A DNA stretch of 64,000 nt from assembly GCA_913058495.1 (NCBI GenBank), contig CAJXQC010000001.1:60779-124778 (forward strand), given 5' to 3'. The notes below the pieces were generated by a model, which saw only the letters and a list, made by a program, of their open reading frames with translations, did not search any database and was not told the origin of the DNA. Both the position numbers and the translations under genes were made by a program. This document shows, piece by piece, positions 16,042-37,487 of this stretch (the stretch's first letter is position 1; each line of letters starts with the position of its first letter). The stretch comes from an uncultured Balneola sp. (GTDB lineage: Bacteria > Bacteroidota > Rhodothermia > Balneolales > Balneolaceae).

Positions 16042-16043
16042 AA

Positions 16044-19668: not shown

Positions 19669-19902
19669 CTATTTCTTGAACTTTAGCCACAGAAAGCCTG
19701 CCGCAAGGGCAATGGCAGCCGCTTTGTACTTCATAGGCACATCGCCGTTGACGTATTTCTTGGCGGTATCCACCAAATCCGTTTTGGTGTTTTCGGCTTC
19801 GGCATTTTTAACGTCCACTACAGGGGAGGAACCGATACCGGCTCCATTGTTTCCGCAGCCGCATCCAAGGCCGTTATCGGAGGTATAGCTTGATTTACTC
19901 AT
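19669..19902 (-). CDS. Small tail-anchored membrane protein (GLG motif)
   Basis: SSY...NGLGCGCG; C-terminal AAAIALAAGFLWLKFKK. Confidence 0.6.
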   Translation of the reverse strand: MSKSSYTSDNGLGCGCGNNGAGIGSSPVVDVKNAEAENTKTDLVDTAKKYVNGDVPMKYKAAAIALAAGFLWLKFKK

Positions 19903-19918
19903 GGGTTATCAGGTTAGG

Positions 19919-20305
19919 TTAGCGTAAGATTTTAAAGAGGATTCCGGCTCCAACAATACCGGCCCCGGCCAGTGCGATCATCTTCTTGTTGATCGGTTTT
20001 TTCTGTGTGACCACCGGCTCACTTTTGGTTATAGGTGGCTGGGCAGTTGCCACAGGCTTTTTGGTCAAATCACGGACCACCGGAGTTACTTTGGGTGGCG
20101 TAATTTTGGGCAATTTTGGCAGAACCGGTTTTCTCATCCTGGGAGAAAGCCCCCGAGGAATGGATATGGTTGGTCGCCGAGTAACACCAGTAGATACCGG
20201 TCGGATAGCGGTGTTCAACTCAGTGGGTAGTGTCGGGCCGAGTACCATTCGCCCCAAACCGGGGGAGCTTTCCTCGCTGTAGATATATCCGGAAGATGAT
20301 TTCAT
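19919..20305 (-). CDS. Pro/Lys-rich tail-anchored membrane protein (SGY...GLG motif)
   Basis: SSGY...PGLG; C-terminal MIALAGAGIVGAGILFKILR. Confidence 0.6.
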   Translation of the reverse strand: MKSSSGYIYSEESSPGLGRMVLGPTLPTELNTAIRPVSTGVTRRPTISIPRGLSPRMRKPVLPKLPKITPPKVTPVVRDLTKKPVATAQPPITKSEPVVTQKKPINKKMIALAGAGIVGAGILFKILR

Positions 20306-20311
20306 AGTGTT

Positions 20312-20866
20312 TTATTGTGTGTTAAAGATTTGGTAGGAAATAAATCCTGTGATGATGAGTGGCACCAGTACCATGCTGGCCGTGGAAGCTTTGGAAATAC
20401 CCATTACCGACTCCACGATTTCTTTACGGCGCAGCACATCGGAGGCGTAATTTTGCCCGGTGGTAATCAGGTTCGGATCAATGCCAGCATTTATGGTATT
20501 TCTTACTTTTGAGTAGCCTGCGTTGTATGCCGCTACAGCTGGAGTGAGCTTGCCGCCAAATTTGCCGATCAGATCTGCCAGGAACTTGCTGCCATAGTGG
20601 ATGTTAGCGCGGTGGTCGTTATTGGTATGGGAGCTCGTAAAGTCCGAGTGATACCTGCGGTCGATTTGCATGATGCCGATGCCGTTGCCGTTGTCGCCCG
20701 TCCAGTTATTGTCCAACGCCAATCCCATATGGCTTTCCCTGGAGGCGATGGCCAAAAGCAGGGAAACCGGCACATTATTAGCCCGAGAAGCCTCATAGAA
20801 GTGCCCCATAATGCCTTTCACCCGAAGGTAGCTGAGCTGGGAAGATATGGACAGCGCGCTGCTCAC
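20312..20866 (-). CDS. Membrane-anchored lytic transglycosylase (SLT/lysozyme-like)
   Basis: IASRES (catalytic Glu), GIMQID, AAYNAG motifs; C-terminal TM. Confidence 0.85.
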   Translation of the reverse strand: MSSALSISSQLSYLRVKGIMGHFYEASRANNVPVSLLLAIASRESHMGLALDNNWTGDNGNGIGIMQIDRRYHSDFTSSHTNNDHRANIHYGSKFLADLIGKFGGKLTPAVAAYNAGYSKVRNTINAGIDPNLITTGQNYASDVLRRKEIVESVMGISKASTASMVLVPLIITGFISYQIFNTQ

Positions 20867-22288: not shown

Positions 22289-22296
22289 ATATGAGG

Positions 22297-22875: not shown

Positions 22876-22876
22876 C

Positions 22877-23290: not shown

Positions 23291-23292
23291 AG

Positions 23293-24069
23293 CTACTCCG
23301 CTGGGATGAATCCGGTTCTTATCTGCACGTAGCTCTCACAAAGGAAACTTACCTCGGCAGGCTGGGCACCATAGTTGGAAGCGTACACGTCAAACGGCAC
23401 GTTCGAGCCCACCACAAAGGGTACGTTGATGTACTTGTCGTTGAACTCGTCGTTCACCTGCTCCAGGAATACTTCATCGCGAACCGTGGTGTTGTACACT
23501 TTCATCGAAGCGGTAATAGCTCCTGGCTGGTTACTGCTCATGGCCATGCGCCGAACCTGAACGTCCACGCTTTTGCTTTTCACGCCCAGATCAATGTTGA
23601 GCCCGCCAGCTGGAACCGTGCTATGGCCATACAGGAACCGGGGCACGGGAATCGAAGCTCCAATCTGCTGGTAGGCCGCATTTAGTTTGGACAGGGCAAA
23701 CTGGTCATAACCGACAATCTGAATGTTTACCGTTTGCTTAGCAGCACCGGTATTGGTGAGTTCAAAAACGATATGGTTGTTCTTTTGAATGATAAAAGGA
23801 GCAAATAGTCCGTCAATAGATTTGAACAGATTGTGCACTACCGAGAGCTGGACGCCCCGAAACAGATAAAGGTCTTCGTTTAGACGAGCGGAAATCAAAA
23901 TGGCATTCATGTTGGCGCTGAACGGGAGAATCTTTCGGATGCCGTAGCGCTCTCCACCCATGCCGTTCATGGTAAGGTGAGCCGTTGCTCCCGGTTGCAC
24001 CTCAACCGATTTGGCCGGATTGTAAGCTGAACTTTCTTTAGGAGGTAAAAAATTGGAGAGTATCTTCAT
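23293..24069 (-). CDS. Putative double jelly-roll capsid protein (tandem duplicated beta domain)
   Basis: Halves align: VQPG/VPAG, GIRKI/QVRRM, PFIIQKN/PFVVGSN, TNTGA/SNYGA, IQIVGY/FLCESY; size similar to small DJR capsid proteins. Confidence 0.55.
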   Translation of the reverse strand: MKILSNFLPPKESSAYNPAKSVEVQPGATAHLTMNGMGGERYGIRKILPFSANMNAILISARLNEDLYLFRGVQLSVVHNLFKSIDGLFAPFIIQKNNHIVFELTNTGAAKQTVNIQIVGYDQFALSKLNAAYQQIGASIPVPRFLYGHSTVPAGGLNIDLGVKSKSVDVQVRRMAMSSNQPGAITASMKVYNTTVRDEVFLEQVNDEFNDKYINVPFVVGSNVPFDVYASNYGAQPAEVSFLCESYVQIRTGFIPAE

Positions 24070-24101
24070 GGTGTTGCTTTGAGGTAGTCAGGATTACTTG
24101 G

Positions 24102-24143
24102 AAAAAAGAATCCCGCCGGAATCAGCGAACTGAAACCGGCGGG
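24102..24143 (-). terminator. Intrinsic terminator after the 203-aa capsid candidate
   Basis: CCCGCCGG-N16-CCGGCGGG stem, then ATTC and a T6 run on the minus strand. Confidence 0.75.
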
Positions 24144-24153
24144 TAGGGATGGA

Positions 24154-24765
24154 TTACTCAACTTCAGCGACTACCATGGAAGCCCTGAGCCACAACTCTC
24201 CCTGACCGGATTGGTTCCAGTTCTCTGTGGTTGGGAACACTGAGGCGTCATCAAAATGGACGGCAAGGGAAACCGTCTGGTTGATGGCCAGATCAAACGG
24301 ATCGGCCAGGCGGTACTCACTGGCAGATTTCATGGTAACAAGCCGGCGATACTCGGCTACGGCGTCAACGGTATTATTGGTGGCCGAGGTAAACTGAATA
24401 CCGGTTCCAGCAAAGTTGGAGAACTCACTCATGGGAGCGCGGAGGAATTCCTTGTTGTCGTTATCGGCCTGAAGCAGAATGGCCGCGTCTTTGAGCCCGT
24501 TCACGATGGCGCGTGCATCGATGCCATTGGCTGGATCGTCTTCAATAAATTGTTTGGTGAGTTCAAAGGATAGGCCCAGAATCCGGCGTTTCATAGCTCC
24601 GGGAAACGGGTTACTTACATAGTTGTCCCGCGTTAGTTTTCGATCTGCATTAGCAGGAAAGAAATTAAGGACTGATTGATTTTGCTGTACTTTGCGTGTG
24701 TCAAAATAGGTCTTGATGCGCGCAGTAGCTGGAACAAGTGCTTTTTTGGAGATTTTATCGCTCAT
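24154..24765 (-). CDS. Putative single jelly-roll major capsid protein
   Basis: YFDT...LNFF...DN...PFP...RILGLSF...PFDLAIN beta-rich pattern; shares PFx[ILV]xxN with both halves of the next gene; followed by a terminator. Confidence 0.5.
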   Translation of the reverse strand: MSDKISKKALVPATARIKTYFDTRKVQQNQSVLNFFPANADRKLTRDNYVSNPFPGAMKRRILGLSFELTKQFIEDDPANGIDARAIVNGLKDAAILLQADNDNKEFLRAPMSEFSNFAGTGIQFTSATNNTVDAVAEYRRLVTMKSASEYRLADPFDLAINQTVSLAVHFDDASVFPTTENWNQSGQGELWLRASMVVAEVE

Positions 24766-24856
24766 AACTGTGATTTAAAAGGTTTAGAAAATGGCTGATA
24801 GCCGGTTTGGTATTACCAGTACCCCTTTTGCAATGCAGAGCTATGAGGTGTTATTT

Positions 24857-25360
24857 CTAGACTTCGATGGTATTATCAACCTCTAAAGAATGTTCTACCT
24901 CATCCACATGGTGTGTTTTTTCCTGGATTTCAGGCAGGTTGTCATACACGTACCCGGAGCCATCCATAAGACCTTGCTGGGGTGTCCAGTCAGGGGTAAT
25001 AAATTTGATGACTTCCATTACGCCTTGTACGCCCATACCCATGGCCAAACCGCGAACGTGTTTGTTTTTGGAAAGGAGCGTTAGAAGTACTCCAGCGGTG
25101 AGAGGGATACCTGCTCGGGTGGCTTGTTGAATAGTTGCTGAGGCGTTGCCTGTCAGCAAGGGGACGGCCAGGACATTCATCTGGGCTGCCACCGCTTGTC
25201 CACCAAGAATATATCCGGCGGTGATAGCCTGCTGCTTGAACTCAGAGACCGCCTTCTCGGTAGTGATTTTGCTTTCTGTTATCATATTACTGCGTCGTTT
25301 GTTTGGGTTTTCGATGATTTGTAGCTCGGAAGGGTTCTTGGCGAACACGCGCTCTTTCAT
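24857..25360 (-). CDS. Virion membrane protein candidate
   Basis: Several Gly/Ala-rich hydrophobic segments; N-terminal NP motifs; directly upstream of the capsid candidate. Confidence 0.5.
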   Translation of the reverse strand: MKERVFAKNPSELQIIENPNKRRSNMITESKITTEKAVSEFKQQAITAGYILGGQAVAAQMNVLAVPLLTGNASATIQQATRAGIPLTAGVLLTLLSKNKHVRGLAMGMGVQGVMEVIKFITPDWTPQQGLMDGSGYVYDNLPEIQEKTHHVDEVEHSLEVDNTIEV

Positions 25361-25388: not shown

Positions 25389-28300
25389 TCAATTAAGAAT
25401 GCCCCTGCCGTCTATGTTGACGTTAGCGATGATGTACACATCACCGTATTTAAACACCGGTCGCTTGCCCGCATCGAAGTAGTGGAAATAGTGATTGTCT
25501 TTGCCTTTTTCGTCATCGGCGTAGATAATCTTATCGCTCACGTACATAATGCGGTCGGCATAGCCGGCACTGATCAGTTTCTCGCCTAAAGGCGGAAACA
25601 GCTCATAATCGTAGTCATCTGCCGGGAAATGATGAAACTCCTCAAACATTTCGGCGGCTTTCGGGTCATTGTAAGCTCCCTTGGAGAGCCTCATTAAACT
25701 GGTTGGAAACACATAAATAGTGGTGCCTTTGGCGTTGATGATCATCGCCAGATCATCAGATTCGGCTTCCACGCGCTGCATGTAGCCCTTGGCGTCGATG
25801 TACTCCAGTTCCTTGACGATGCCGGAATAGACCAGTGGTTCTTCATAGAGGGTTTTGAGTACGCCGTGTCGTTTGGTGGTTTTTGCAGGCACACTGTCCG
25901 CCTTGTTCTCACGAAGTTGAGGCGATCCTTTGGGTGCACTGCCTTTTAGCGAACCCACATCACGGACAGTGATCGTTTTGCGGATCTTGTATTTCGGGGC
26001 GATCCGGTTGATCTCTTCATACAGCTCGTTCCGGTCATCGTAGCTCACCGCCACCAGCTGGTTGACCACATCGTTGAGTTCGATCACGGTCTTCTGATTG
26101 TTTTCGCTTGCGGTTTTAGACGCTTCCAGCTCTGTTTTGGTATCTGCCAGCACCTTTTGAAGTTCAGCCAGCGTTTTCTCGGTCTGCTTTAATTCACTGC
26201 TTAGCAGTTCCATGCGGGACTGGGAGGTTCTGATCCACGCTTTTTCGAGTTCCAGGAATAGCTCCGCCAGTTTTCGGGTGATAATCGGCTGCCACTTTTT
26301 GATGGTAAACATCCCGGCGGACTCTTTGATGGCCTTGAAGCTTTGCTCGTTTCCAACCTCGTCTTTTTTGGCCTTTTCGGCTTCGATGTCGATGCCGTAT
26401 TCCGCGTAAAAATCTTCCTCCGTGGCAATGATGTTGCCAAGGTTGCCGGAGATGGATTTGCCCTGTCCGGTCTTTTCTTCCAGCGTCCACCCGAAGGCAG
26501 TGGCCAGCTCTTTGGAGGCCATACGTTTGATGGAACCCCACGTCTGCTTGTTGTAGAACGAGCGGTCAGGGATATTGCTGTCGGGGATCAGGTGAAACCA
26601 TACCCGCCCGTTGGCATTGTTTTCGGGCACGTCCAGCACGGTTTTCATGCGGTAGCCGGAAATGCGTTTGGAGTCGGAGCTAAGCTGGATATCGAGCTGG
26701 TACGGCTCGCCGTTCCACCCGTACTGCACGTCTAACAGGTTCTCCTTTAACGCTTTTTCAGCGCTTTCGGGAAGCTTTGAGTTTTGTAAGGCCGATTCCC
26801 GCTCTACCACGCTTTTCATGCGATCCTGTTTTCCCTGGATATCGGTGGTCGCCTGCGCTTGGCTGGCTTGGAGTCGTTGCACTTCAGATTCCAGGTTGTC
26901 AATCCGGTCATCGAGTACGTTCTTTTGAGCTAAAGCTTCGAAAAATTGTTTTACTCGCGGATCGGAGTTGGTCGCGGCTACCATCTGCTCGTATTCCAGT
27001 GACTCCGAGTCGCCACCCGTGGACACTTCACGCACGGTGCCAAAGAACAGGTCATCAATCCAGCTCTGTTTTTTGGAGACCAGTTCCAGCCGGTACTGAT
27101 CAAAGGAGTCCTGCATTAGGTAGTAGTGAATCTGAACTTCCCCATACTGATTCCCCTGACGAAGCCCGCGCCCGTTGCGCTGCTGGATTTGCGAAGGCGT
27201 GTAGGGAACGTCCATGTGGTGCATGTCGGTCGTCCACTTCTGAAGGTTCATCCCCTCGGCAATCGACTGGTTGCCAATTACCACCCGGTACTTACCCTGG
27301 TTGAAATTGTCCTGCACTTCTTTCTTAAGCGCTTCCTTGTCGTCTTTGCTACTCACGGAGTAATCATCCCCGTTTTTGCTCGTGCCAATGATAGACCCGT
27401 TGATGATCGCAATCTGCTCTTTGGGGATTCCGGCTTTGACCAGCTCGGATTTGATGAGCTGATGGAAACTACCTCCCTGAGACTGATGAAGGCTGATCCA
27501 GTCGCAGAATATAATCTGGTTGCGAATAGCAGGGCTGGCTGGATTGGATCGGCTTGCTTTGATCTGCTCCCATTCTTTATTGAGCTTATGGGCGCGTTCG
27601 GTAGCTTCTTTTTCGTTGCCAAAGATGCCTTCGCTCCATGTGTGTTCTGGTTTTTTGGGCTCCAGTATATGCAGGGGCTCATACACTTCTTTCTTTTCAT
27701 CCCAGACCACCCAGTAGCCGCTCTTTTCTTTTACCACACCCTTGCTGGTAATGACCTCAATATGGGATGGGTTCTCCCGGAGGTGCGGAGGAGTCACGGC
27801 AATCTGTCCTCTGCCTGGCCGGTGAAAATAGTCGCCGTATAGGTCTTCCGGCACCATTTCGGGAGCGGGATTGGAACGGGCCCCGTAGGAAGCGGCCACG
27901 TTTTCGACCATTGCTCCAAGCTTGAGGTAGGATCGGTCGATACCTTCAAAATCCTTGTCGTACACCCGCAGGTCGGTCGCAATTTTGCTGCCATCGCCGG
28001 TAATTACAAGAAAGTTGTCGCGGGTTTCGCACTGCCGTTCTTTCATGCAGGCGATGACCTCGTTGGCCCGGAGGATAATGTCATCAAAAAGAAGCTTATG
28101 CAGCTCGCTGGGCTCAATAATCACGTTTCGGGTACTGGCCTTGGGGCGCTTGAATTTGGGTTCGAGCACCTTGGGTTTTCCATCCTTGCCATTGACCGTT
28201 TTACCGTCCTCATCCTGAATATAGTCTGGGAATTCCTTGTAAAAACCAATCAGCTGATCGTAGCTCTTGATGTCCATTACCTCGTCAATGATCTTGCGCA

Positions 28301-31300
28301 TTTCCGGCAGGTTGTAGTACCCGGCCACCACACGCTCGGAGCGGTATTCTCCGTTGGTCTTTTTGACGATCTTTTCTTCTTCCCGGACAAACAGGTTAAT
28401 GAAGTTATCGAGGTTTTCAATTTCGTATTTGGCCAGCAGATCCGGGGCGCATAGGTTAAGCATGTGCCACACCTCTACCGGAGAGTTCACGACCGGGGTT
28501 GCGGTAAGCACAAACACGTTTTTATGGCCCACTTTGCTGAACAGCCACCGCGTTTTTTGCAGGGTGTCTTCGGCTCGCTGGGAAGGCTTGTTCGCCGAGA
28601 TTCCCAGCTTGGCGGCTTTGGCCGAACCCAGGGCGTTTTTGTAGAAATGCGCCTCGTCAAAGAACAGGCAGTCCACGCCCAGCTCGTCAAAGAAAATATC
28701 GGTTTCAAGGCGCTTGGAATGCGCCACATTGCGGAGCTTGGTTTCCCATTCTTCCATCTGCTTTTCCATGCGTTTCATCATGGAGGTTTTGGCCGCTTTC
28801 GAGATGGCCTCGTCTTCTTCAAGCAGGTCCTCAAAATTTTCCAGCATTTGGTTGAAGTAGTCGATGCGCTCCTGGTAAATACGAGCCTGCTCTGCCGGAG
28901 ACAATGGAAGTGATTTAAAGGCGTGGTCGGCGATAAAGATAGCGTCCCAGTTGTAGAGCTGGGCCATCGTAAGTTCTTTATGCTTGTCTCCACCGGCCAT
29001 TTTCATGTTGAGGACTTTGGCGTCTGGAAAGAGCATCAGGTATTCTTCCACCCATTTTTCCTGCACTTTGCCGGGCACGACAAACATCGGTTTTCGGGCG
29101 GCTCCCTGCTGGAGGAGCACTTGGGAGGTGATAATGGAAGCCAGCGTTTTTCCGGCTCCCACATCGTGGCAGTTGGCACCTTTGCCGTTCCACACCAGCT
29201 TTTCGGCAATGGCGCGATTGTGCTTGTACACGGTAAAGTCTTTCACCCCGTAAAAGGTGTCGCTCATGCCTCGAACCCGAAGGGTGCGCCCGTCAAAAGG
29301 CGGGTTGATCACCGCGTTATAGGTATGGTTGTAGGCGGCCTCGATCATGCCTCGGACTTCGGAGGAAGCTTTGGTGCGCACCCAGTTGTTGAACTTTTTG
29401 GGCACGTGCGTAAGCATCCGGTTGTTGTTCTGGCGCTGTATTTTTCGCGCCCGTTCGATGAGCATCTGACCGCGTTCTCCCTTCATGGATTGCGCTTCTT
29501 TGAGCGTCATAGACGGCATGAGGTTGTCGTCCTCATCATAGAATTTCAGCGGAAAGGTGCTGTCCTGAATGTACGAGGTAATGATTTTGGTAAATGGCGT
29601 CTCGCCCCAGCCCAGGTTGTTGTCGTCGGGGGTTTCATCGCCCGTGCCCACATAACGGCCCCATTTCCGAAGCTTCATGTAGAACCGGTTGCCGAGCTCG
29701 GCTTTGTCTTTGACAAGGCCGATTTCCACTTTGTCGTAGTTCATTTCATCTTTGATCCACTCTTCAATGGCTTTGGCAGGCAGGTAAGTAAACACGTGCT
29801 GCGGGTCCACGGTAATGTTGTACACGTCGATCCATTCGGGCACCACCTCTTGTAGCGCCTTGATGTTCTTTTCCAGCTCGTGCTCCTGGGCCAGTTGCAG
29901 TTTCTCGCGCACGTTACCCGAGAGGTACTGGTAGCGAAATTCGTGGTTTGACGTGGCCGGATTCCAGTAAAAGTCAGGGTGATCTTCCAACGCTTTTTCC
30001 AGCTCCTCTTTGCTGGTCGTGCCCCCTTTGTACACCGATTGGTAGAAGTCAAGATCTAAGGTCTCACCAATACTGCGCCCGAACATGGCCAGCTCAGCCA
30101 AATCGTCAGAATCCTTTACCGCAGGCACATAGTTGCGATTGAACATAGAATCGGCGTCGATGATGTCGGCGTGCACCAGCTCTCCATTAAGCGGATCTCG
30201 TTTCACAAGGGTCGTGAGCTTGTAAAGCCGGTTGTCAAACTTGAACACCTTGCGAATGTCTTCGTCTTCATCGGGAACCCCGTACTGCTCGATGTGACCC
30301 GATAAAAGCTGCTTGAATTCAGCACGGAGGGCGTCTTTTTCGCTCGTTTCCTGCGCCAGTGCGGTTATATAGTCGTCGTATTTGTCCAGCAGCTGACAGG
30401 CCGATCGGGTGCGCGCCTCCAGTCCGGAGCCGCCTTTGAGGGTAAGCCGCTTGAAAAACCGTCGCTGTTTCTCGTAAAAATGGTTCTCATGGAAGACGAT
30501 ATTTCCCGGATGGTACGACCTTGGCAGGTTAAGCATAATGCCATCATCGGGAATGTTGTACAAGGGCATCTCGACCGGAAGCGAGTAAGGAAAAGTCAGC
30601 CCGTCAGAAAGCACGGAGTTAATAACAGATTCAGAAAGTTCACCTTTCACTCCCATACGGGAATAAAACTGTACGTGGTGCCCCTGAATATGCTCACCCA
30701 ACACGTGGTTTGGGTGTTCTTTATAGTACGGGTTGTAAGAAGCGGTATAGGTTTCACCATTATAGGAGACCTGACTTTCAATCAGCTCCTCTTGGGCAAA
30801 AAGTCGGTTGAGTTTCGAGTCCACGTCCGGATGAATGTCGCCCTGATGCTCTCCATATTTCTGGAAGAAAAGAATATCGGTAGTTACCGTGGTATCGGCG
30901 TTGTCTTTAAACGCCGTAGAAGGCAGCCGGTAGGCCCCTACAAAATGGGCGCGTTGTATCATAGCCTGACGAATGGACGGGTCTTTTTTATCCATTGTGC
31001 CCGTCGAGGTGATCACCGCCAAGAAACCACCGGGTTTAAGAGCGTCCAGGGATTTTAGGATAAAGTAGTCGTGAATGCGTGGGCTCATTGGGGCCAGCGG
31101 ATCGCGGGAAGTATGAATTTTCAGGTCCCCAAAGGGCACGTTCCCAACCACGCCAGTCAGGTTGTATAGGGAAAGATCGGTGTCGGCAAAGTTTTCGTGG
31201 CGCACGGTCTGCATTGGGTATAGCAGACTCGCAATACGGGAACTAATGGCCGAGCGTTCGATCATGACCATCCGAAACTTGTCGCGGTCGGGAAGGAATC

Positions 31301-32618
31301 CGGCAAAGTTGCCCACGCCAGCGCCTGGCTCTAAAATATTGCCACCCGTGACACCCATTAGTTGAAGCTTATCCCAAATGAGTTTGACCACGGGGTACGA
31401 GGTGTAGTGCTCATTTAGCAAGCCCCGCTTGGACTGCTCGGTGGATTCGGTGTAGCCTAACCCGCCCGCCCCGGTGTAAGAGCGGAGTAGGTCGATATCG
31501 GATTTGGTAATCGCGCGGTCTTCTTTTTGAAGCACCCCGATGGCCGCTTCGTTGGCTTTGCGACGCTCGGAGGCGGTTAGCTTGATGGGCGCAAATTCCG
31601 AAAGTTCGGTGTCGCTAAACCTAAAAGTTGATTGGCCTGATTTCTTTTTGGGCTGTTTGGCAGGTGTTGGTTTCTTAGATGTGGCTCGGTTAAATACCCC
31701 GTCAAAATCGACGCCGATGATGCGACCGTGTGCCCTGAAAAGCTCCAGGGCTTCTTCTCTATGCTCTGCCGGAAACTTGTCCAGCTGAAATGCCAAGGCC
31801 AGTTTACCTATGGTCTGCTCAAAATCTGCCTGAAGCTGTTGGAGCTCGCTGCCTGGATTAGACCGAAGGGTAAGCTGGGTTTCAAGCGCTTCCAAATCGA
31901 CCAAATAAGGTTCGAGTTTTTCCGCTGATTCGGTGTCGCCTTTGTCGGCTTTCCACGCGAGTTGGGTGAGTTCTTCCAGGAGTGCCCCGTTAAGCTGGCC
32001 CACTTTATAGGGCTGGTGCGAGGCCGCCGAAATCATGGACATCCGTTTGGTTTTAACCTGGATTTCGACCGGGTACTGCCCGTCCACTACGAGGATAAAA
32101 TGATGGGCGCGGTAGCCATTCGCTGGGTTTTTATATTTGTCTTCGTGTTCCCACACTTCGCCCAACTCGCCCGAAAGGATACGCTCCACCATCTTATCCA
32201 CCTGCTCCTGGGTTTCAGCAATGGCCATACAACCCGCCACATCGGTCAGGCCGGTAGTGTATTTTTCTCCGGCTTTGGTGGCCATTTTTTCGGTAAAGGG
32301 AAACCTTTTGCGAATGAGTTTCCCTAAAGTGGAATAAATTTCTTTAATTCGGCCCTTTACCACCAAGGCCAGATTCATAGCCAATAGCCCTTTCATGACT
32401 TTCTTTAGGGCCGGGATATAGTTGTTTTTCGCCTCAATCACGGCCTTGATCTGCGGTGCCAGTTCGGCCTCAGAAACCGGGGCGGTATCTCCCGGAGTAA
32501 GCGGGTTGGGATCATCAATATTGACAATCCCGTCGGAGTCCCAGTCGCCCAACCAGTGATCAAAGTCGCCGGTGGACAGGTGGGTAATCTGGTCGATATT
32601 TGTTTTAACTACGGGCAT
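25389..32618 (-). CDS. 2409-aa polyvalent protein: RelA/SpoT-like synthetase + N6-adenine MTase + SNF2 helicase (DarB-like) + unknown C-terminal domain
   Basis: KGRIK, DVAG, NGYRAHH, EIQVKT; LEPGAGVGNF, GNVPFG; HDVGAGKT, DEAH, LTATP, AEGMNLQ, QRNGRGLRQ. Confidence 0.85.
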   Translation of the reverse strand: MPVVKTNIDQITHLSTGDFDHWLGDWDSDGIVNIDDPNPLTPGDTAPVSEAELAPQIKAVIEAKNNYIPALKKVMKGLLAMNLALVVKGRIKEIYSTLGKLIRKRFPFTEKMATKAGEKYTTGLTDVAGCMAIAETQEQVDKMVERILSGELGEVWEHEDKYKNPANGYRAHHFILVVDGQYPVEIQVKTKRMSMISAASHQPYKVGQLNGALLEELTQLAWKADKGDTESAEKLEPYLVDLEALETQLTLRSNPGSELQQLQADFEQTIGKLALAFQLDKFPAEHREEALELFRAHGRIIGVDFDGVFNRATSKKPTPAKQPKKKSGQSTFRFSDTELSEFAPIKLTASERRKANEAAIGVLQKEDRAITKSDIDLLRSYTGAGGLGYTESTEQSKRGLLNEHYTSYPVVKLIWDKLQLMGVTGGNILEPGAGVGNFAGFLPDRDKFRMVMIERSAISSRIASLLYPMQTVRHENFADTDLSLYNLTGVVGNVPFGDLKIHTSRDPLAPMSPRIHDYFILKSLDALKPGGFLAVITSTGTMDKKDPSIRQAMIQRAHFVGAYRLPSTAFKDNADTTVTTDILFFQKYGEHQGDIHPDVDSKLNRLFAQEELIESQVSYNGETYTASYNPYYKEHPNHVLGEHIQGHHVQFYSRMGVKGELSESVINSVLSDGLTFPYSLPVEMPLYNIPDDGIMLNLPRSYHPGNIVFHENHFYEKQRRFFKRLTLKGGSGLEARTRSACQLLDKYDDYITALAQETSEKDALRAEFKQLLSGHIEQYGVPDEDEDIRKVFKFDNRLYKLTTLVKRDPLNGELVHADIIDADSMFNRNYVPAVKDSDDLAELAMFGRSIGETLDLDFYQSVYKGGTTSKEELEKALEDHPDFYWNPATSNHEFRYQYLSGNVREKLQLAQEHELEKNIKALQEVVPEWIDVYNITVDPQHVFTYLPAKAIEEWIKDEMNYDKVEIGLVKDKAELGNRFYMKLRKWGRYVGTGDETPDDNNLGWGETPFTKIITSYIQDSTFPLKFYDEDDNLMPSMTLKEAQSMKGERGQMLIERARKIQRQNNNRMLTHVPKKFNNWVRTKASSEVRGMIEAAYNHTYNAVINPPFDGRTLRVRGMSDTFYGVKDFTVYKHNRAIAEKLVWNGKGANCHDVGAGKTLASIITSQVLLQQGAARKPMFVVPGKVQEKWVEEYLMLFPDAKVLNMKMAGGDKHKELTMAQLYNWDAIFIADHAFKSLPLSPAEQARIYQERIDYFNQMLENFEDLLEEDEAISKAAKTSMMKRMEKQMEEWETKLRNVAHSKRLETDIFFDELGVDCLFFDEAHFYKNALGSAKAAKLGISANKPSQRAEDTLQKTRWLFSKVGHKNVFVLTATPVVNSPVEVWHMLNLCAPDLLAKYEIENLDNFINLFVREEEKIVKKTNGEYRSERVVAGYYNLPEMRKIIDEVMDIKSYDQLIGFYKEFPDYIQDEDGKTVNGKDGKPKVLEPKFKRPKASTRNVIIEPSELHKLLFDDIILRANEVIACMKERQCETRDNFLVITGDGSKIATDLRVYDKDFEGIDRSYLKLGAMVENVAASYGARSNPAPEMVPEDLYGDYFHRPGRGQIAVTPPHLRENPSHIEVITSKGVVKEKSGYWVVWDEKKEVYEPLHILEPKKPEHTWSEGIFGNEKEATERAHKLNKEWEQIKASRSNPASPAIRNQIIFCDWISLHQSQGGSFHQLIKSELVKAGIPKEQIAIINGSIIGTSKNGDDYSVSSKDDKEALKKEVQDNFNQGKYRVVIGNQSIAEGMNLQKWTTDMHHMDVPYTPSQIQQRNGRGLRQGNQYGEVQIHYYLMQDSFDQYRLELVSKKQSWIDDLFFGTVREVSTGGDSESLEYEQMVAATNSDPRVKQFFEALAQKNVLDDRIDNLESEVQRLQASQAQATTDIQGKQDRMKSVVERESALQNSKLPESAEKALKENLLDVQYGWNGEPYQLDIQLSSDSKRISGYRMKTVLDVPENNANGRVWFHLIPDSNIPDRSFYNKQTWGSIKRMASKELATAFGWTLEEKTGQGKSISGNLGNIIATEEDFYAEYGIDIEAEKAKKDEVGNEQSFKAIKESAGMFTIKKWQPIITRKLAELFLELEKAWIRTSQSRMELLSSELKQTEKTLAELQKVLADTKTELEASKTASENNQKTVIELNDVVNQLVAVSYDDRNELYEEINRIAPKYKIRKTITVRDVGSLKGSAPKGSPQLRENKADSVPAKTTKRHGVLKTLYEEPLVYSGIVKELEYIDAKGYMQRVEAESDDLAMIINAKGTTIYVFPTSLMRLSKGAYNDPKAAEMFEEFHHFPADDYDYELFPPLGEKLISAGYADRIMYVSDKIIYADDEKGKDNHYFHYFDAGKRPVFKYGDVYIIANVNIDGRGILN

Positions 32619-32621
32619 GGC

Positions 32622-34040
32622 TTAGCTAAGGACTTTTTCTAAAAAGGCATCGAGTTTGGCCTGGCTTTTTCGGGCGGCTTCTAGGTCTACTTCAGCCTTT
32701 GGAGGCGTCTGCTCTTTAGGCTTAGGTGCTGGTTTGGATTTCTTTACCGCCGATTTTTTCTTGGCGGTTTTCTTGGTGGGCGGAGTAGGTTTGCGCTTAG
32801 GTGTTTTCTTGGCTTTGGCTTTGCCGGTTGGCGGGCAATCCGCGGTGCCATCTTGCAACTTTTCCTGCCTCCGGTATTCTCGCGCGCCCAACACTTTCTT
32901 TGCATGATCCTGGGCCAGAATCTGTACTTCCAGATTTCCGTGCTTTTTCACCAGCTGAGCCCAGGAAGCCGCAAATCCGCCTTTGGCCCCTTCGGTGCAG
33001 ATCTGGGTTTTCAGCTCCCCGTCAATGAGCAGCTCCACGATGTAACGTTTGTTGTAGTAGTCGGGCACATAGCGAATGCTCAGTGTTGCCCGTTCGGACT
33101 CCCCGGAATGCTGTTTGGCGTAGCACGGCATTTTGGAGCCGAGCAGTGAATTCACCCGTTTCCAGGAGCGCAGTTTGTGGAGGGTATTGATTTTTTTGAG
33201 TGAGATCGTAAATGGCAACTCTACGGGATTATCGCGTGGCTCGCTGTGCGTGGGATTCATTAAATAGCTTCCTCTTTTTGAGGCCCAATGGGCTGCCTGC
33301 TGTTTAGTGAGACCAAATTCATCCTGAAAAAAGTCGATGAGTTCCTCATCAGTTGAGGTCTCATTATTAGAAAGCTGGTCTTCCACGCCTTCATGCTGGC
33401 TTTGCGTAAGCGGGGGAATAATTTTTAGAGTTTCGGCAGTGGCTAATGTGCCAAATGGAACATCGATGGCATTTAATAACTGATAGCGGTTTTTTTCGGT
33501 CTCAGCCAGTCCCTCTTTGGTTACTTTAATTTCAATGTCGCATTCGTGTGCGATACTGGTGTTGCCCTTATACTTGCCATCTTTGGTCGCATGTGCCACC
33601 ATGATGAACCCAATGCCATGTTCGCGGCACCACTGTGCCAGTTCTACCGTGGAGGCGTCTTTGGCGTCAATGACAGAAATAGAATCCAATACGCAAAAGG
33701 CAGATCTGTTTTTCAGCAGGGTTTCTTTTAGCGATGTGAGTGATTTCCACTTAGTAAAGTTCAGGTTGTTGTGGGTCGCTTTTAATCGCTTGACTCGGTC
33801 AATGAGTGTTTTACCGAAATGTTCTTCGGCTGGTATATATTCGACTCTACCGTGCTGTGCAAGAGCGTTTGCAAGGCCTAAACTGAAGGTGGACTTTCCG
33901 GCCCCTTTCTCACCCCAGATAAAGATGACGGCATTTTTCTCCGGTTCCCCAAGAAGTGTACCATAAGGTTCGGCAATCTTGATGCCTTTGATGTTTATTT
34001 TTGCCAGTTCTTTGGCGCTCAGAGTATTCTGGATGTCCAT
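32622..34040 (-). CDS. RecA/RadA(Sms)-like ATPase with Lys/Pro/Ala-rich C-terminal tail
   Basis: WGEKGAGKS Walker A, CVLDSIS Walker B, AH.TKDG...G...IAHECD, KNRY; tail KKTPKRKPTPPTKKTAKKK. Confidence 0.8.
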   Translation of the reverse strand: MDIQNTLSAKELAKINIKGIKIAEPYGTLLGEPEKNAVIFIWGEKGAGKSTFSLGLANALAQHGRVEYIPAEEHFGKTLIDRVKRLKATHNNLNFTKWKSLTSLKETLLKNRSAFCVLDSISVIDAKDASTVELAQWCREHGIGFIMVAHATKDGKYKGNTSIAHECDIEIKVTKEGLAETEKNRYQLLNAIDVPFGTLATAETLKIIPPLTQSQHEGVEDQLSNNETSTDEELIDFFQDEFGLTKQQAAHWASKRGSYLMNPTHSEPRDNPVELPFTISLKKINTLHKLRSWKRVNSLLGSKMPCYAKQHSGESERATLSIRYVPDYYNKRYIVELLIDGELKTQICTEGAKGGFAASWAQLVKKHGNLEVQILAQDHAKKVLGAREYRRQEKLQDGTADCPPTGKAKAKKTPKRKPTPPTKKTAKKKSAVKKSKPAPKPKEQTPPKAEVDLEAARKSQAKLDAFLEKVLS

Positions 34041-34041
34041 A

Positions 34042-34362
34042 TCAACGGTTCCTCATTTTTTTAGCGATCACAATTAAAGCACCGATGGCAATGCCAGCCA
34101 GAACAGCTTTGGTCAGCATGGCTTTTTTATCTGTTTTCATATTTAATGGAGCATTGGATACCCCCAGTTTTGAAAGTAGTGTTGGCCCGGCCTCTCCGGT
34201 TACCGGAAGAGAATACCTACGTTGAGCTTTCATAACGGCAGATTGGGTTTCACTTCCAAATTTTCCGTCAATACCATATTGAGGTAGATCAAATCCTGCT
34301 TTTTGCAATCCTGCTTGGAGCCTGATTACCTGTTGTCCTGAGGCGCCTTTACTGAGAGTCAT
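34042..34362 (-). CDS. Tail-anchored peptidoglycan-binding protein
   Basis: LSKGASGQQVIRLQ...L...IDGKFGSET..AV...Q...LPVTG PG-binding pattern; C-terminal TM plus KKMRNR. Confidence 0.85.
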   Translation of the reverse strand: MTLSKGASGQQVIRLQAGLQKAGFDLPQYGIDGKFGSETQSAVMKAQRRYSLPVTGEAGPTLLSKLGVSNAPLNMKTDKKAMLTKAVLAGIAIGALIVIAKKMRNR

Positions 34363-34754
34363 TTCTTCGATGTTGAGTTATACGTTCGATGTGCAAGCAC
34401 ACCTATTGTGATACCGATCAGAAGCGTAGAGCTATACTTTATCAGTGGTGATTTAGCTGAGGATGATAAAGGATCATCGGTAGTTAATTTCTTTGCCAGA
34501 GCCACCAAATCCACATACTCGAAGTAGGCGTCAATGACTCCGGCGTTCTGTTCATATACCCTGGTGATACCTGCTTTACTGGTGGTCAGGTTGGCCAGGT
34601 TGAGTCCCATCGTGGCAAGCTGGCCGCGACGACCACTTGTGGCGCTCTGAAGTTTCCCCGCAAACAGCTTAAAGGCGTTTTGCGAGGTGCGTTGCAGGTA
34701 ATCGTCCATGCCGTGTAATGCAGTACCGGTATGTGGTATAAAAGTTGATTTCAT
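34359..34754 (-). CDS. Tail-anchored membrane protein
   Basis: C-terminal LLIGITIGVLA plus basic tail; 4-bp overlaps on both sides. Confidence 0.6.
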   Translation of the reverse strand: MKSTFIPHTGTALHGMDDYLQRTSQNAFKLFAGKLQSATSGRRGQLATMGLNLANLTTSKAGITRVYEQNAGVIDAYFEYVDLVALAKKLTTDDPLSSSAKSPLIKYSSTLLIGITIGVLAHRTYNSTSKK

Positions 34755-35434
34755 TCGGCAGGTACTTTAGGAGCTAAGGCTTTTACACCCGCCCGAAGTC
34801 CAGGGAGCATGGGGGCTAAGAAATAAAGCCCCGCACCAGCAACCGATATAATGATCACCCGTTTGAGTAGCGTATTCACCTCCCCAAGGGTGTTACCCGG
34901 TCCAAGTTCGGGCATCTTGTACCACGACTCGGTGGGTGGAGAATACACCCCGGACTGCTCGCCGGTTTTCTGGTCCAGGTCGAGGGAAATGGGTGCGGAC
35001 TTTTCGATGAGATCTGAAGCGGGTAGCTTGCTTAAATCAATATCATCGGGGTACACTTCAAAAACCACTTTATGGCCCGAGGTGGGAACAAACGAACGGT
35101 CAAAAACGAGTCGTCCCTGTGCGCGGCAACCGTCCATCATCGACGTTCCGAACCGCTGGAAGCCTAATACAGACCCAGTCTGCTCCGACCGAACCACCAC
35201 AAGGGCGTCGGGGCATTGCCCCCAGCTGGCCAGAAACGGAACAAACAGCACTTTGGCCCAATTCCGGAAGGTTTCAATTTCAAGGTCAAGCGAAAACGGA
35301 ACCCCGCTGGGCGGGTTCCCCGAGGCGGGGTTACGCCCGATAATGCGAAGTTCTACAGCCTCGGAGCTTATGATATTGCTGGACAGGTTGAGCTGCCCGA
35401 GTCCGGTGTCGATATATCCTGATTGCGCGTTCAT
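34751..35434 (-). CDS. Tail-anchored beta-sandwich protein (SGY...GLG motif)
   Basis: QSGYIDTGLG; beta-rich core with two Cys; TM VIIISVAGAGLYFL. Confidence 0.6.
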   Translation of the reverse strand: MNAQSGYIDTGLGQLNLSSNIISSEAVELRIIGRNPASGNPPSGVPFSLDLEIETFRNWAKVLFVPFLASWGQCPDALVVVRSEQTGSVLGFQRFGTSMMDGCRAQGRLVFDRSFVPTSGHKVVFEVYPDDIDLSKLPASDLIEKSAPISLDLDQKTGEQSGVYSPPTESWYKMPELGPGNTLGEVNTLLKRVIIISVAGAGLYFLAPMLPGLRAGVKALAPKVPAE

Positions 35435-35435
35435 T

Positions 35436-35705
35436 TTACCTCCTTAGCAAGCGGTAGCCTACATAAAGGCCACCTGCGATTAGTAAGGTGTTCTGGTTAT
35501 CCCGAATCCACTGCGAAAGTGAAATCGGCTGCTCCTGAAGTCGCTGGCATAGTTTTTTGGCCGCAGGCTCTTCGCCTTCGCCCATTTCTATGACCTGCAT
35601 ATCCGGCTGCTCGTAAGAAGTATCTTCCGTGTCAGGCAATACCATAGGGGCATGGCCACCTGGAACGCCACCGTCTAAATACGTTGAAATTCGTCCTGCT
35701 TGCAT
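35436..35705 (-). CDS. Small acidic tail-anchored protein
   Basis: C-terminal LLIAGGLYVGYRLLRR. Confidence 0.6.
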   Translation of the reverse strand: MQAGRISTYLDGGVPGGHAPMVLPDTEDTSYEQPDMQVIEMGEGEEPAAKKLCQRLQEQPISLSQWIRDNQNTLLIAGGLYVGYRLLRR

Positions 35706-35707
35706 AC

Positions 35708-36031
35708 TTACTTCTTCAGCACTTTGAGTAGAATGATCCCACCGACTATGGCGATTCCTGCTATGCCCGCATACTTGATCAACTCTCCCGAGCCGCTGGG
35801 AGCAGGTGCGCCTTGGCCGGGATATAGCACCGGCGGTTGTCCGCCTCCAGACTTGTTTCCGCCTTTGTTGACGACCCCATCTATGGTCACCACGGTATCG
35901 GTTGCGGTCTTAAGTAAGTCGTTGATAGAGGTTAAAGCCGAGCCAAATTTGGTTTGGGTGGGCTGGGAAACGATAGCTGCTCGTTGGTTGAGAAGGTCAA
36001 AACTGGTATAACCGCTGGGTTGTTTGGTCAT
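35708..36031 (-). CDS. Small Gly-rich tail-anchored protein
   Basis: PSGY; C-terminal YAGIAGIAIVGGIILLKVLKK. Confidence 0.6.
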   Translation of the reverse strand: MTKQPSGYTSFDLLNQRAAIVSQPTQTKFGSALTSINDLLKTATDTVVTIDGVVNKGGNKSGGGQPPVLYPGQGAPAPSGSGELIKYAGIAGIAIVGGIILLKVLKK

Positions 36032-36044
36032 GGGACAGGCCTGC

Positions 36045-36467
36045 TTATTTAGAAGATTTCTTTTTTCGTTTCAGCATCAAAACCGCCAAAGCAATAGCTC
36101 CGGTAAGAGCAACTCCACCCACAGCGATACCCGACTTCATGGTCGAATTGGCTGTCTGCTGCTGGGAAGCGGTAGTGGTAAGATTGGTCTGGAGCGCCTG
36201 CATCATTTCTTCGCGCTGGCCTTCCCACTGGGCTTTCTTTTGAAGGGAAGCTTCGTGCGCTTTGCAAAGCGCCTGACTTTTCTCACGTTGACGGCGGCAG
36301 CTTTTCAGCTTGCCAAACATTTTGCCTTTACAGCTTTGGTTGGCGTACCGGCACGGGTCGGTTTCTTCCCAATTGCCCAGTCCGGGACTGATGGCCACGG
36401 CAATCACCGCATTTTCCTCTCCAATGACAGTATCCTCTAAGGGAATGATAAATCCACTTTTACTCAT
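36045..36467 (-). CDS. Cys-containing tail-anchored protein (SGF...GLG motif)
   Basis: KSGF...PGLG; four Cys; C-terminal TM plus KRKKKSSK. Confidence 0.6.
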   Translation of the reverse strand: MSKSGFIIPLEDTVIGEENAVIAVAISPGLGNWEETDPCRYANQSCKGKMFGKLKSCRRQREKSQALCKAHEASLQKKAQWEGQREEMMQALQTNLTTTASQQQTANSTMKSGIAVGGVALTGAIALAVLMLKRKKKSSK

Positions 36468-36470
36468 GGT

Positions 36471-37487
36471 CTATTTATTTAGAAGCATATACCCGCCACC
36501 AATCAGAACCAAGGTTCCAATGGCAAGACCAGCATACAGCCCCATTTTTTTGGTTTTATTTGCTGCTTGTTGTTGAGTAACCCAAACCGGGGAAAGTTGC
36601 CCGTAGCGATTCAGTTGCTGAACCGCCGGGGCACCAAGTTCATCTATAATCTGTGCGTAGCGCTGAAGTGTGGCATTATCCTTTTGGGAAAGACTGATGA
36701 CCTCGGATTGCACGCCTCGCTGCATGAGGTGATCTCGAAGGGCTCCGCGCATTTGGCGCTCACCAGAATCCTTGGCTCCAAATATGCTGGACAAGGTATT
36801 TTTTAGCGTCATCCCGGTACTGGCCATTGTTGTAGCCGTGGTGAGTAGCGTAATAGGGTCAAGCCCCAAACCTTCCGGCATCAGGTTGGTGACGTGCCTG
36901 GATTTTTTAATGAGCCGCTCATCAAATACGTAACCTGGATATTTCAGCACAGTTGTATCGAAAGATTTCCAGCCGGTAGGTGATTGGTACACCGCGTAAA
37001 TATGGTCAAAGTGACGTCCCGTTCGCGAGACAATGCGAAAGCCCGTTTGAATACCTAAGCTTTGCAGCAAGGCAGCACCTAAAATGGCATGATCATCGCA
37101 GTCACCGGCTCGCTGAGTAATGGTGACAAAGGGCGATTGAATACGCTCGACATCCCATGGGTCGCGCACGTAATTCACGTTGCGCACCATCCACTTGTAT
37201 ATGGCGGAGGCAATAGCGTCAATGTTTCGCAGGTCGGGTTGTCCGGTAAGCCGGTGTCGCCGGATTGTGCTTGTAATTTTGAGAGCAAGTGAGCGAATGC
37301 GCTCGTCGCCGGTATATTTAGTAACCAACCTGCTGGCTGCCGAAATTACGCCTTCCACACCGGGGTAGGCCTGGCGTCGTGTAGAAAGAGGTACTGTGGA
37401 TGCTTCCAAAGAAGCATCCACAGCCCGTGCTCTGGCATGTTGCTGCTGGGTATCTGGTAATATCTGTACGTAGCCACTTTGCATCAA
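36471..37487 (-). CDS. Transglutaminase-like (Cys-His-Asp) enzyme with C-terminal membrane anchor; putative maturation protease
   Basis: YVRDP...GDCDDH, FDHIYA, SFDTT triad; internal EGLG; C-terminal TM. Confidence 0.8.
   Translation of the reverse strand: MMQSGYVQILPDTQQQHARARAVDASLEASTVPLSTRRQAYPGVEGVISAASRLVTKYTGDERIRSLALKITSTIRRHRLTGQPDLRNIDAIASAIYKWMVRNVNYVRDPWDVERIQSPFVTITQRAGDCDDHAILGAALLQSLGIQTGFRIVSRTGRHFDHIYAVYQSPTGWKSFDTTVLKYPGYVFDERLIKKSRHVTNLMPEGLGLDPITLLTTATTMASTGMTLKNTLSSIFGAKDSGERQMRGALRDHLMQRGVQSEVISLSQKDNATLQRYAQIIDELGAPAVQQLNRYGQLSPVWVTQQQAANKTKKMGLYAGLAIGTLVLIGGGYMLLNK

Follow-up and report, generated by a model that had tools for sequence, protein, structure and literature searches.

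The window analysed here, 64,000 nucleotides of contig CAJXQC010000001.1 (assembly GCA_913058495.1) from an uncultured Balneola sp., contains ten open reading frames (ORFs) between positions 19,669 and 37,487 that encode proteins with a hydrophobic helix at the C-terminus. These genes belong to a provirus of the PRD1/PM2/STIV architectural class that is a relative of phage SSIP-1, and the pattern of C-terminal anchors among their products is real and far beyond chance. We consider it likely that the ten ORFs form the membrane-protein set of this integrated, tail-less, internal-membrane double-stranded DNA virus, and that their products are inserted after translation with the cargo domains on the capsid side. 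We infer membrane insertion, the presence of most of the ten proteins in the virion and their orientation, and are less certain of the orientation by itself than of the overall explanation.

All ten ORFs were confirmed at their coordinates on the minus strand, where they are spaced by gaps of 1-13 nt or by overlaps of 4 nt. Transmembrane segments were called from Kyte-Doolittle (KD) hydropathy at two thresholds, a value of at least 1.6 over 19 residues and of at least 1.7 over 15 residues. The initial annotation of this stretch had described ten ORFs that carry a C-terminal hydrophobic helix, lack an N-terminal signal peptide and mostly end in K or R, and the measurements agree with this description. 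At the 19-residue threshold, exactly one transmembrane segment, located at the C-terminus, was called in seven of the ten proteins; at the 15-residue threshold a single C-terminal segment was called in nine, the exception being the product of 35436-35705. When a tail anchor is defined as a single transmembrane segment within ∼30 residues of the C-terminus with no other transmembrane segment, nine of the ten are tail-anchored by hydropathy and 35436-35705 is marginal. No N-terminal or other hydrophobic segment was found by hydropathy in any of the ten, and eight of them end in K or R.

The helices are rich in small residues, as had also been noted at the outset. Gly and Ala make up 36% of the transmembrane cores, compared with 17% in 3664 transmembrane 15-mers of the host (Mann-Whitney p = 2e-5), and small-xxx-small motifs occur 1.7 times per segment in the candidates versus 0.64 times in the host (p = 1e-4). 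The uncharged runs are short, spanning 12-22 residues across the ten helices. A Lys or Arg residue directly precedes the hydrophobic run in nine of the ten proteins, and K/R residues are found on both sides of the helix, with one to four in the N-terminal flank and none to six in the C-terminal tail, which extends 2-20 residues beyond the helix.

That tail-anchored topology is uncommon in bacterial proteomes, another statement of the initial annotation, holds for this genome. With ORF-based proxy genes used as the background in place of a real annotation, single C-terminal transmembrane topology was found in 8 of 24 proteins of the island that holds the ten genes, as against 21 of 2931 proteins (0.7%) elsewhere in the 3.4-Mb genome (Fisher p = 2e-11). 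Nowhere else in the genome do 25 consecutive genes include at least three such proteins.

The ten genes are arranged in two clusters. Cluster 1 (34042-37487) holds seven genes and lies upstream of a gene for a P-loop ATPase. It contains the gene for a 338-aa transglutaminase-like protein of Cys-protease fold (36471-37487; Pfam Transglut_core, 5.6e-8), with a transmembrane segment at residues 317-335 and the tail NK; as called, this protein begins with MMQSGY, and its true start is probably the ATG at 37484. A 140-aa tail-anchored protein (36045-36467) begins with MSKSGF and has its transmembrane segment at 114-132 and the tail KRKKKSSK, and a 107-aa tail-anchored protein (35708-36031) begins with MTKQPSGY and has a Gly/Pro-rich linker, a transmembrane segment at 84-102 and the tail KVLKK. 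The 89-aa protein encoded at 35436-35705 is the weakest of the ten candidates: its short C-terminal hydrophobic stretch, TLLIAGGLYVGY, has a 12-residue uncharged run and a marginal 15-residue KD value of 1.37, and is followed by RLLRR. The 227-aa protein (34751-35434), with the N-terminus MNAQSGY..GLG, has an Ig-like beta-sandwich, a transmembrane segment at 189-207 and a conserved tail of 20-26 residues with a PxLPGLR motif. Cluster 1 also encodes a 131-aa protein (34359-34754; 15-residue KD value 1.72), whose C-terminal transmembrane segment LLIGITIGVLA is followed by the tail HRTYNSTSKK, and a 106-aa peptidoglycan-binding protein (34042-34362; Pfam PG_binding_1, 6.4e-16) with a transmembrane segment at 81-99 and the tail KKMRNR.

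Cluster 2 (19669-20866) holds three genes and lies downstream of the capsid-like genes. It encodes a 184-aa lytic transglycosylase (20312-20866; Pfam SLT, 1.4e-13) with a transmembrane segment at 154-172 and the uncharged tail SYQIFNTQ, a 128-aa Pro-rich tail-anchored protein (19919-20305) with the N-terminus MKSSSGY..GLG, a transmembrane segment at 109-127 and the tail KILR, and a 77-aa Cys/Gly-rich tail-anchored protein (19669-19902) with the N-terminus MSKSSY..GLGCGCG, a 13-residue hydrophobic run (15-residue KD value 1.81) and the tail KFKK. The claim that the helices carry different cargo domains is thus supported by Pfam domains on three of the ten candidates (lytic transglycosylase, PG_binding_1 and the transglutaminase core of Cys-protease fold), by a visible Pro-rich stretch and, at low confidence, by a beta-sandwich in the AlphaFold2 (AF2) model of the 227-aa protein. 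That model has a mean predicted local distance difference test (pLDDT) score of 62, which is low, with strands in residues 16-130 and a helix at 182-209. A function for this cargo domain was sought by fold search and rejected, as Foldseek returned just generic Ig-like domains for the low-confidence model.

It is conceivable that the helix and its basic tail are a cleavable signal of the sortase, exosortase or rhombosortase type, processed by the transglutaminase-fold cysteine protease so that cargo is released or transferred. The helix-plus-basic-cluster design resembles such signals, a protein of Cys-protease fold is encoded in the same operon, and the 140-aa protein gives a sub-threshold Pfam match to Gram_pos_anchor (E = 0.076), far below the gathering score. 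All known substrates, however, have N-terminal signal peptides, which are missing here; no conserved LPXTG, PEP or GG motif was found before the helices; and the protease candidate bears the same anchor as its presumed substrates. We therefore rejected sortase-like sorting signals, given the lack of signal peptides and of a signature motif, and regard this explanation as highly improbable.

The viral nature of the island came from its kinship with SSIP-1, a salt-lake phage that reviews describe as tailless and membrane-containing, with a genome that has hardly any likeness to other GenBank entries (PMC6356626). Phages of the SSIP-1 type have no ICTV family. The island proteins were compared with phage genomes by tblastn and then by pairwise BLASTP with all 57 SSIP-1 proteins. 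In tblastn, SSIP-1 was the sole match among phage genomes for the 258-aa protein encoded at 23293-24069 (3e-5). BLASTP gave nine orthologue pairs in the same gene order: the 338-aa protein with gp34 (4.8e-34), the 227-aa protein with gp35 (1e-3), the 131-aa protein with gp36 (2.5e-5), the 472-aa ATPase with the SSIP-1 structural ATPase gp40 (1.5e-34), a giant 2409-aa protein with gp43 over the C-terminal ∼100 residues only (4.6e-8), a 167-aa protein with the structural protein gp44 (4.5e-8), a 203-aa protein with the structural proteins gp45 and gp46 (1e-15 and 2.9e-8), the 258-aa protein with gp47 (1.3e-10) and the 184-aa SLT protein with gp54 (4.6e-26). Both genomes share the order of a membrane-protein cluster, the ATPase, the giant methylase/helicase, the capsid genes and a second membrane-protein cluster, and in both a methylase/helicase protein of more than 2300 residues is encoded between the ATPase and the capsid genes.

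The fold of the predicted major capsid protein is consistent with this kinship. The 258-aa protein (23293-24069, minus strand), orthologous to gp47, was modelled by AF2 from 28 sequences with a pLDDT of 81 and a predicted template-modelling (TM) score of 0.82, and the model is all-beta and built of two halves. In Foldseek it matched the 256-aa viral protein I1ZBI0, which is probably SSIP-1 gp47, with a TM-score of 0.81 (E = 1e-19). It further matched the STIV capsid protein (4e-7 in BFVD and 1.2e-5 in PDB), the major capsid protein of the tectivirus Wip1 (3.7e-5), the PBCV-1 capsid protein and the two-jelly-roll enzyme PHM, with TM-scores of only 0.3-0.5 to PHM, STIV, Wip1 and PBCV-1. On the basis of this model, the 258-aa protein appears to be a compact double-jelly-roll-like capsid protein candidate. 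SSIP-1 has been placed in the single-barrel group, described as 'vertical single beta-barrel, two MCP' (MCP, major capsid protein; PMC4958249, PMC5332951), and the model is relevant to the choice between this group and the double-jelly-roll viruses as the place of SSIP-1. The 203-aa protein (24154-24765, minus strand), orthologous to gp45/gp46, is the second capsid-protein candidate.

The island is visible as a GC-rich segment at ∼18.5-38.9 kb, with ∼50% GC compared with 38-40% in its surroundings, in which all long ORFs lie on the minus strand. The provirus is larger, ∼25.6 kb, and extends over ∼18.5-44.1 kb to adjoin a tRNA-Met(CAT) gene. This size was assigned because the nine closest relatives (L002-L010 in our locus numbering) carry the stretch at 39-44 kb along with the structural module and because the border at tRNA-Met(CAT) is shared: the five of these nine that were checked (L003, L005, L007, L008 and L009) all have this tRNA gene at the same relative position. 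No Pfam or PHROG match to a tailed-phage hallmark (terminase, portal, HK97 capsid or tail) was found among the 24 island proteins. A conjugative or secretion system, as might be read from the combination of SLT and PG-binding domains, an ATPase and small transmembrane proteins, was rejected in view of the homology to SSIP-1 and the capsid fold.

The same anchors are kept in related proviruses. Full-length relatives of the 338-aa protein were found in at least 28 loci at 59-96% identity. The host genera of the related loci are Gracilimonas, Balneola, Fodinibius, Aliifodinibius, Rhodohalobacter and Halalkalibaculum, all Balneolaceae, and further loci occur in one metagenome-assembled genome (MAG) of Saprospiraceae and in one contig filed under a cyanobacterium. 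Copies with 95-96% identity are present in Gracilimonas tropica DSM 19535 and G. amylolytica LA399. Orthologues of the seven upstream candidates were found in 27-29 of the loci, with identities as low as 31-40%; except in the broken copies of L015 and L029, all of these keep the C-terminal hydrophobic helix and nearly all keep the basic end. The residues of the helix change between orthologues, as when AVLAGIAIGALIVIAKKMRNR corresponds to LLAIGTIAIIGIGIAIKRTKRD.

Family by family, the transmembrane segment of the 338-aa protein is kept in 28 of 29 loci, with a truncation in L029, and that of the 140-aa family (29 loci, 51-99% identity) is kept together with its K-rich tail in all but the frameshifted L015. 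All members of the 107-aa family (28 loci, 37-95% identity) have the transmembrane segment and a ...LKKK(S) end. In the 89-aa family (27 loci, 31-96% identity), the hydrophobic stretch and an RR(R) end are conserved, and the stretch remains marginal throughout, whereas most orthologues of the 77-aa and 131-aa proteins have more hydrophobic helices. Among 28 loci, intact orthologues of the 131-aa protein have 15-residue KD values of 1.6-2.4, L015 again being frameshifted; for the 106-aa PG-binding protein, likewise among 28 loci, the intact orthologues keep a transmembrane segment, the sequence of which has changed. In nine further loci the helix at the C-terminus of each of the three downstream proteins is likewise kept, bar one weaker 77-aa orthologue: it is present in nine relatives of the SLT protein at 35-89% identity, it accompanies an N-terminal S-x-Y in the positional orthologues of the 128-aa protein, and seven of eight orthologues of the 77-aa protein have 15-residue KD values of 1.8-2.7 and K/R ends, the eighth (L085) having a value of 0.86.

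A second feature was found at the opposite end of these proteins. The tripeptide S-[GS]-[YF], starting at residues 2-8, is present in 6 of 24 island proteins, all six being tail-anchor candidates, compared with 15 of the 2487 long ORFs in the rest of the genome (p = 2e-8). When relaxed to [ST]-x-[YF] anywhere in residues 1-12, the tag is found in seven tail-anchored families without exception among their distinct N-termini, and an eighth family has it in three of five. The PG-binding and SLT families lack it, and the other families have at most one or two chance matches each. That the tag could be a translation signal at the nucleotide level was considered and rejected, as the six genes use different codons for S-G/S-Y/F, which places the constraint on the protein. 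In three proteins (77, 128 and 227 aa), a GLG follows the tag after 5-9 residues (SSYTSDNGLG, SGYIYSEESSPGLG and SGYIDTGLG, respectively). It is conserved in the alignment of the 227-aa family and could be a cleavage site.

Tentatively, the N-terminal S-x-[YF] tag in the first 8-12 residues and the C-terminal Gly/Ala-rich anchor might be read together as a two-ended address, which would define a dedicated pathway for loading unrelated cargo onto the internal membrane. In such a pathway the tag might be either a capsomer-docking peptide that staples the shell to the membrane, like the N-terminal part of PM2 P3 or NO16 GP18, or a recognition site for the co-encoded and equally anchored transglutaminase-fold protease in maturation.

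How the ten proteins could reach a viral membrane is suggested by their topology. We argue that each protein would be made in the cytoplasm without a signal peptide and, as a tail-anchored protein, be inserted post-translationally into the cytoplasmic membrane of the host, because its sole helix is at the extreme C-terminus and no signal peptide is present. The N-terminal cargo domain would stay in the cytoplasm, and just the short tail would cross the membrane. In the model for PRD1, the host membrane takes up the viral membrane proteins and a patch of it is pinched off, and the capsomers of PM2 are brought into register on the membrane by its transmembrane proteins P3 and P6 (PMC6356626). 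By analogy with PRD1 and PM2, a virus-specific patch would be pinched off into the cytoplasm and coated with capsid proteins, so that the cytoplasmic face becomes the outer, capsid-facing side of the viral vesicle. The cargo domains (protease, PG-binding, transglycosylase, beta-sandwich and Pro-rich linker) would then lie between membrane and capsid or at the vertices, where they could hold shell and membrane together and, at a later stage, come into contact with the cell wall as the virus enters. The tails, short and for the most part basic, would point into the lumen that holds the DNA, and the Gly/Ala-rich helices with their small-xxx-small motifs may favour tight packing in a small, curved membrane. 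A precedent for the position of the cargo is NO16 GP18, a homologue of PM2 P3, whose N-terminal domain is ordered and occupies pockets beneath the capsomers, and in which a transmembrane segment is predicted at the C-terminus (PMC13552765). That the basic tails face the DNA, as the initial annotation had proposed, would be topologically consistent with the logic of tail anchoring, with the PRD1 model and with the PM2 and NO16 structures.

Several points weigh against this explanation. The transmembrane calls come from KD hydropathy only; three of the helices have just 12-15 uncharged residues, and one (35436) is marginal. With K/R residues on either side of the helices, the C-terminal side is not distinguished by its charge, and the flanking residues may sit at the lipid head groups. 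Moving K/R-rich tails across a membrane also contradicts the positive-inside rule. Neither an integrase ORF in the island nor direct repeats of the att type beyond chance-level repeats of 12-13 bp at the element were found. For the membrane proteins of SSIP-1 the comparison draws on GenBank notes and reviews, and gp34 is the only SSIP-1 orthologue of the ten that is annotated as structural.

The charge distribution bears on an inverted topology, in which the basic tails would remain on the cytoplasmic, capsid-facing side and the N-terminal domains would be exported, so that the peptidoglycan-directed domains end up in the periplasm and the vesicle lumen. Tails such as KRKKKSSK and KKMRNR are strongly basic and would stay inside by the positive-inside rule, and the substrate of the SLT and PG-binding domains is periplasmic. 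PM2 enters by fusion, and entry of this kind would release the contents of the lumen into the periplasm. Export of domains of 60-315 residues, however, would have to proceed with neither a signal peptide nor an N-terminal hydrophobic segment, the N-terminal flanks are themselves basic, with one to four K/R residues, and in the sole structural precedent, PM2 P3 and NO16 GP18, the N-terminal domain is on the capsid side. We consider the inverted arrangement very unlikely and favour cargo domains that face the capsid.

The virion is not the only membrane in which tail-anchored proteins could reside. Most of the ten could be confined to the host membrane, as assembly factors, in lysis or peptidoglycan remodelling or in superinfection exclusion, and remain there as the particles are made. 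A role in lysis could fall to the SLT and PG-binding domains; gp35, gp36 and gp54 of SSIP-1 are annotated as hypothetical and not as structural proteins; and PRD1 uses the non-structural membrane protein P10 in assembly (PMC6356626). On the other hand, small membrane proteins are easily missed in virion gels, so that a missing note of 'structural' is weak evidence, and three SSIP-1 proteins of or near this topology are structural: gp34 and gp41 have a single C-terminal transmembrane segment, and gp53, with a hydrophobic end, was scored as mid-chain. Neither gp41 nor gp53 has a detected counterpart in the island. In addition, the genes in question are part of the structural operon, in which they flank the ATPase and capsid genes, a separate terminal trio of genes resembles a lysis cassette, and the PRD1 record labels P7, which has the same SLT-plus-transmembrane architecture, a transglycosylase. 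P7 is a virion protein. Weighing these points, we regard confinement to the host membrane as rather unlikely for most of the ten, and the membrane-protein set of the virus as the better explanation. Of the claim that all ten are proteins of an internal viral membrane, the type of virus is borne out by synteny and homology with SSIP-1 and by the capsid model, whereas the presence of all ten in the virion is not, only the orthologue of the 338-aa protein being annotated as structural. The uniform anchoring of different cargo stands: the same bias is seen in SSIP-1 and is kept in at least 28 proviruses, and it is not seen in other membrane phages.

The remaining genes of the provirus complete the structural, lysis and replication modules. 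The 472-aa P-loop ATPase (32622-34040, minus strand), encoded between the two clusters, strongly matches phrog_6891 (4.9e-31), the PHROG search giving nothing for the remaining proteins, and in Pfam only near-threshold matches to AAA_25 and Pox_A32 were obtained, the latter at 22.0 bits, just under the cutoff. The 2409-aa protein (25389-32618, minus strand) combines RelA/SpoT (Pfam RelA_SpoT, 7.9e-11) and SNF2 helicase domains (SNF2-rel_dom, Helicase_C), which are above the Pfam threshold, with a sub-threshold N6-methyltransferase-like match. It takes the position of SSIP-1 gp43, a protein of 2319 aa annotated as structural, with which just its last ∼100 residues can be aligned. The 2409-aa protein may be packaged and injected, like DarB of phage P1. 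The 167-aa orthologue of gp44 (24857-25360, minus strand) has internal hydrophobic segments with a mid-chain transmembrane call and is not tail-anchored.

The terminal trio (18547-19664, minus strand) consists of a 191-aa conserved protein, a 95-aa protein with an N-terminal transmembrane segment and a coiled coil, and an 88-aa protein with a C-proximal transmembrane segment; one ORF here, 18547-18813, is an eleventh of the same C-terminal transmembrane type. No Pfam or PHROG match was found for the trio, including the 191-aa protein, and both the 191-aa and the 95-aa proteins are conserved in relatives. The trio is probably a lysis cassette. At the other end, an early, replication and lysogeny module (38130-43931) encodes proteins of 250, 143 and 73 aa, a 771-aa primase/helicase-like protein, a 254-aa DnaG-like protein, small regulators and a divergent repressor-like gene, and the right-hand border is formed by the tRNA-Met(CAT) gene at 44142-44216 on the plus strand (ARAGORN). 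Next to the provirus, at 8411-18483 of the window, lies a low-GC block (31-35%) with two type IIG-like restriction-methylase ORFs (1064 and 971 aa) and small genes, which looks like a defence island.

Some observations concern the wider family. Two or three diverged provirus copies per genome were found in Aliifodinibius sp. S!AR15-10, Fodinibius sp. SL11, Balneola sp. EAC52 and Gracilimonas sediminicola, the multi-copy loci being L020/L024, L023/L028/L030, L004/L009 and L084/L091. The contig filed under a Pleurocapsales cyanobacterium (L012, JADEXJ010000181.1) is 11.5 kb long, of low coverage, and carries a 64%-identical provirus copy; it is probably a Balneolaceae-like contaminant of a non-axenic culture. 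Distant transglutaminase matches in Flavobacterium, Kryptonia and archaea (L031-L083) were rejected as family members, as they share that domain only, with the exception of one contig of an Aquificota MAG (L031, 14.5 kb). Its transglutaminase-like protein is 43% identical over the core, it has matches to the integrase gp13 and the endolysin gp31 of SSIP-1, and 5 of its 25 ORFs are of the tail-anchor type, on one strand. This contig may represent a more distant relative outside Bacteroidota.

In the literature searched, no report of relatives of SSIP-1 turned up, nor any treatment of tail-anchoring in phages with an internal membrane, and SSIP-1 is treated as an orphan. What is new here is a Balneolaceae family of at least 28 proviruses, a quantified, lineage-wide rule of C-terminal anchoring and the N-terminal tag that accompanies it. 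How membrane proteins are selected and oriented in internal-membrane viruses is poorly understood, and the element links SSIP-1 to at least 28 proviruses in cultivable Balneolaceae. The sequence rule, a C-terminal Gly/Ala-rich anchor that is usually accompanied by an N-terminal S-x-[YF] tag, could help to recognise such viruses in genomes, and could aid the study of bacterial tail-anchored insertion and of the coupling between shell and membrane.

The comparison with PM2 and PRD1 that had been proposed was made with P23-77 and SSIP-1 added, by applying one classifier to the annotated proteins of the four phages and to the island. Proteins with a single C-terminal transmembrane segment, as against a single N-terminal one, numbered 0 versus 12 in PRD1, 4 versus 4 in PM2, 4 versus 11 in P23-77, 9 versus 2 in SSIP-1 and 10 versus 1 in the island, and gp36, gp53 and gp54 of SSIP-1 are extra marginal C-terminal cases by eye. 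A C-terminal bias is thus found in the island and SSIP-1 only. C-terminal anchoring itself is known in internal-membrane phages, the C-terminal cases of PM2 including P3 and P8 with Gly-rich helices and basic ends, and its near-exclusive use is a trait of the SSIP-1 lineage.

SSIP-1, the closest of these phages, resembles the provirus in its near-exclusive C-terminal anchors with Gly/Ala-rich helices as well as in gene order. It differs in several respects: protein identities are only 22-39%, its genome measures 43.8 kb compared with ∼25.6 kb here, it has three capsid-protein genes (gp45-47) instead of two (203 and 258 aa), and the giant proteins are homologous at the C-terminus only. Furthermore, the N-termini of its proteins lack the S-[GS]-[YF] tag, it encodes an integrase whereas none was seen in the island, and the host of the island is a member of the Balneolaceae with ∼39% GC.

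The island proteins have no sequence homology to those of PRD1, PM2 or P23-77, the best match (E = 0.016) being of low complexity, and the likeness to these phages is one of architecture. As in the 184-aa SLT protein, a transglycosylase domain in PRD1 P7 is followed by a single transmembrane segment near the C-terminus (221-239 of 265), but P7 (P7/P14) has a 26-residue tail after the helix and no tblastn-level similarity to the island, and the other membrane proteins of PRD1 are N-terminally anchored. PM2 P3 and NO16 GP18 are small proteins with a C-terminal predicted transmembrane segment and a basic end, PM2 P3 ending in ...LLLGFGGLLVLGLVMRGNK; their N-terminal part docks under the capsomers, and they act as tethers or templates between capsid and membrane (PMC13552765, PMC6356626). 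PM2 P3 differs in having neither an enzymatic cargo domain nor sequence similarity to the island, and PM2 mixes the ends at which its proteins are anchored.

Outside the viruses, the nearest parallels are tail-anchored inner-membrane proteins of bacteria, such as E. coli ElaB/YqjD/YgaM, TssL, DjlC and Flk. They share with the ten proteins a single C-terminal transmembrane segment, the lack of a signal peptide and a short, often basic end. They are, however, encoded by scattered host genes, whereas here ten unrelated cargo domains are encoded in one operon and mostly bear an N-terminal tag, and their presumed destination is a viral membrane.

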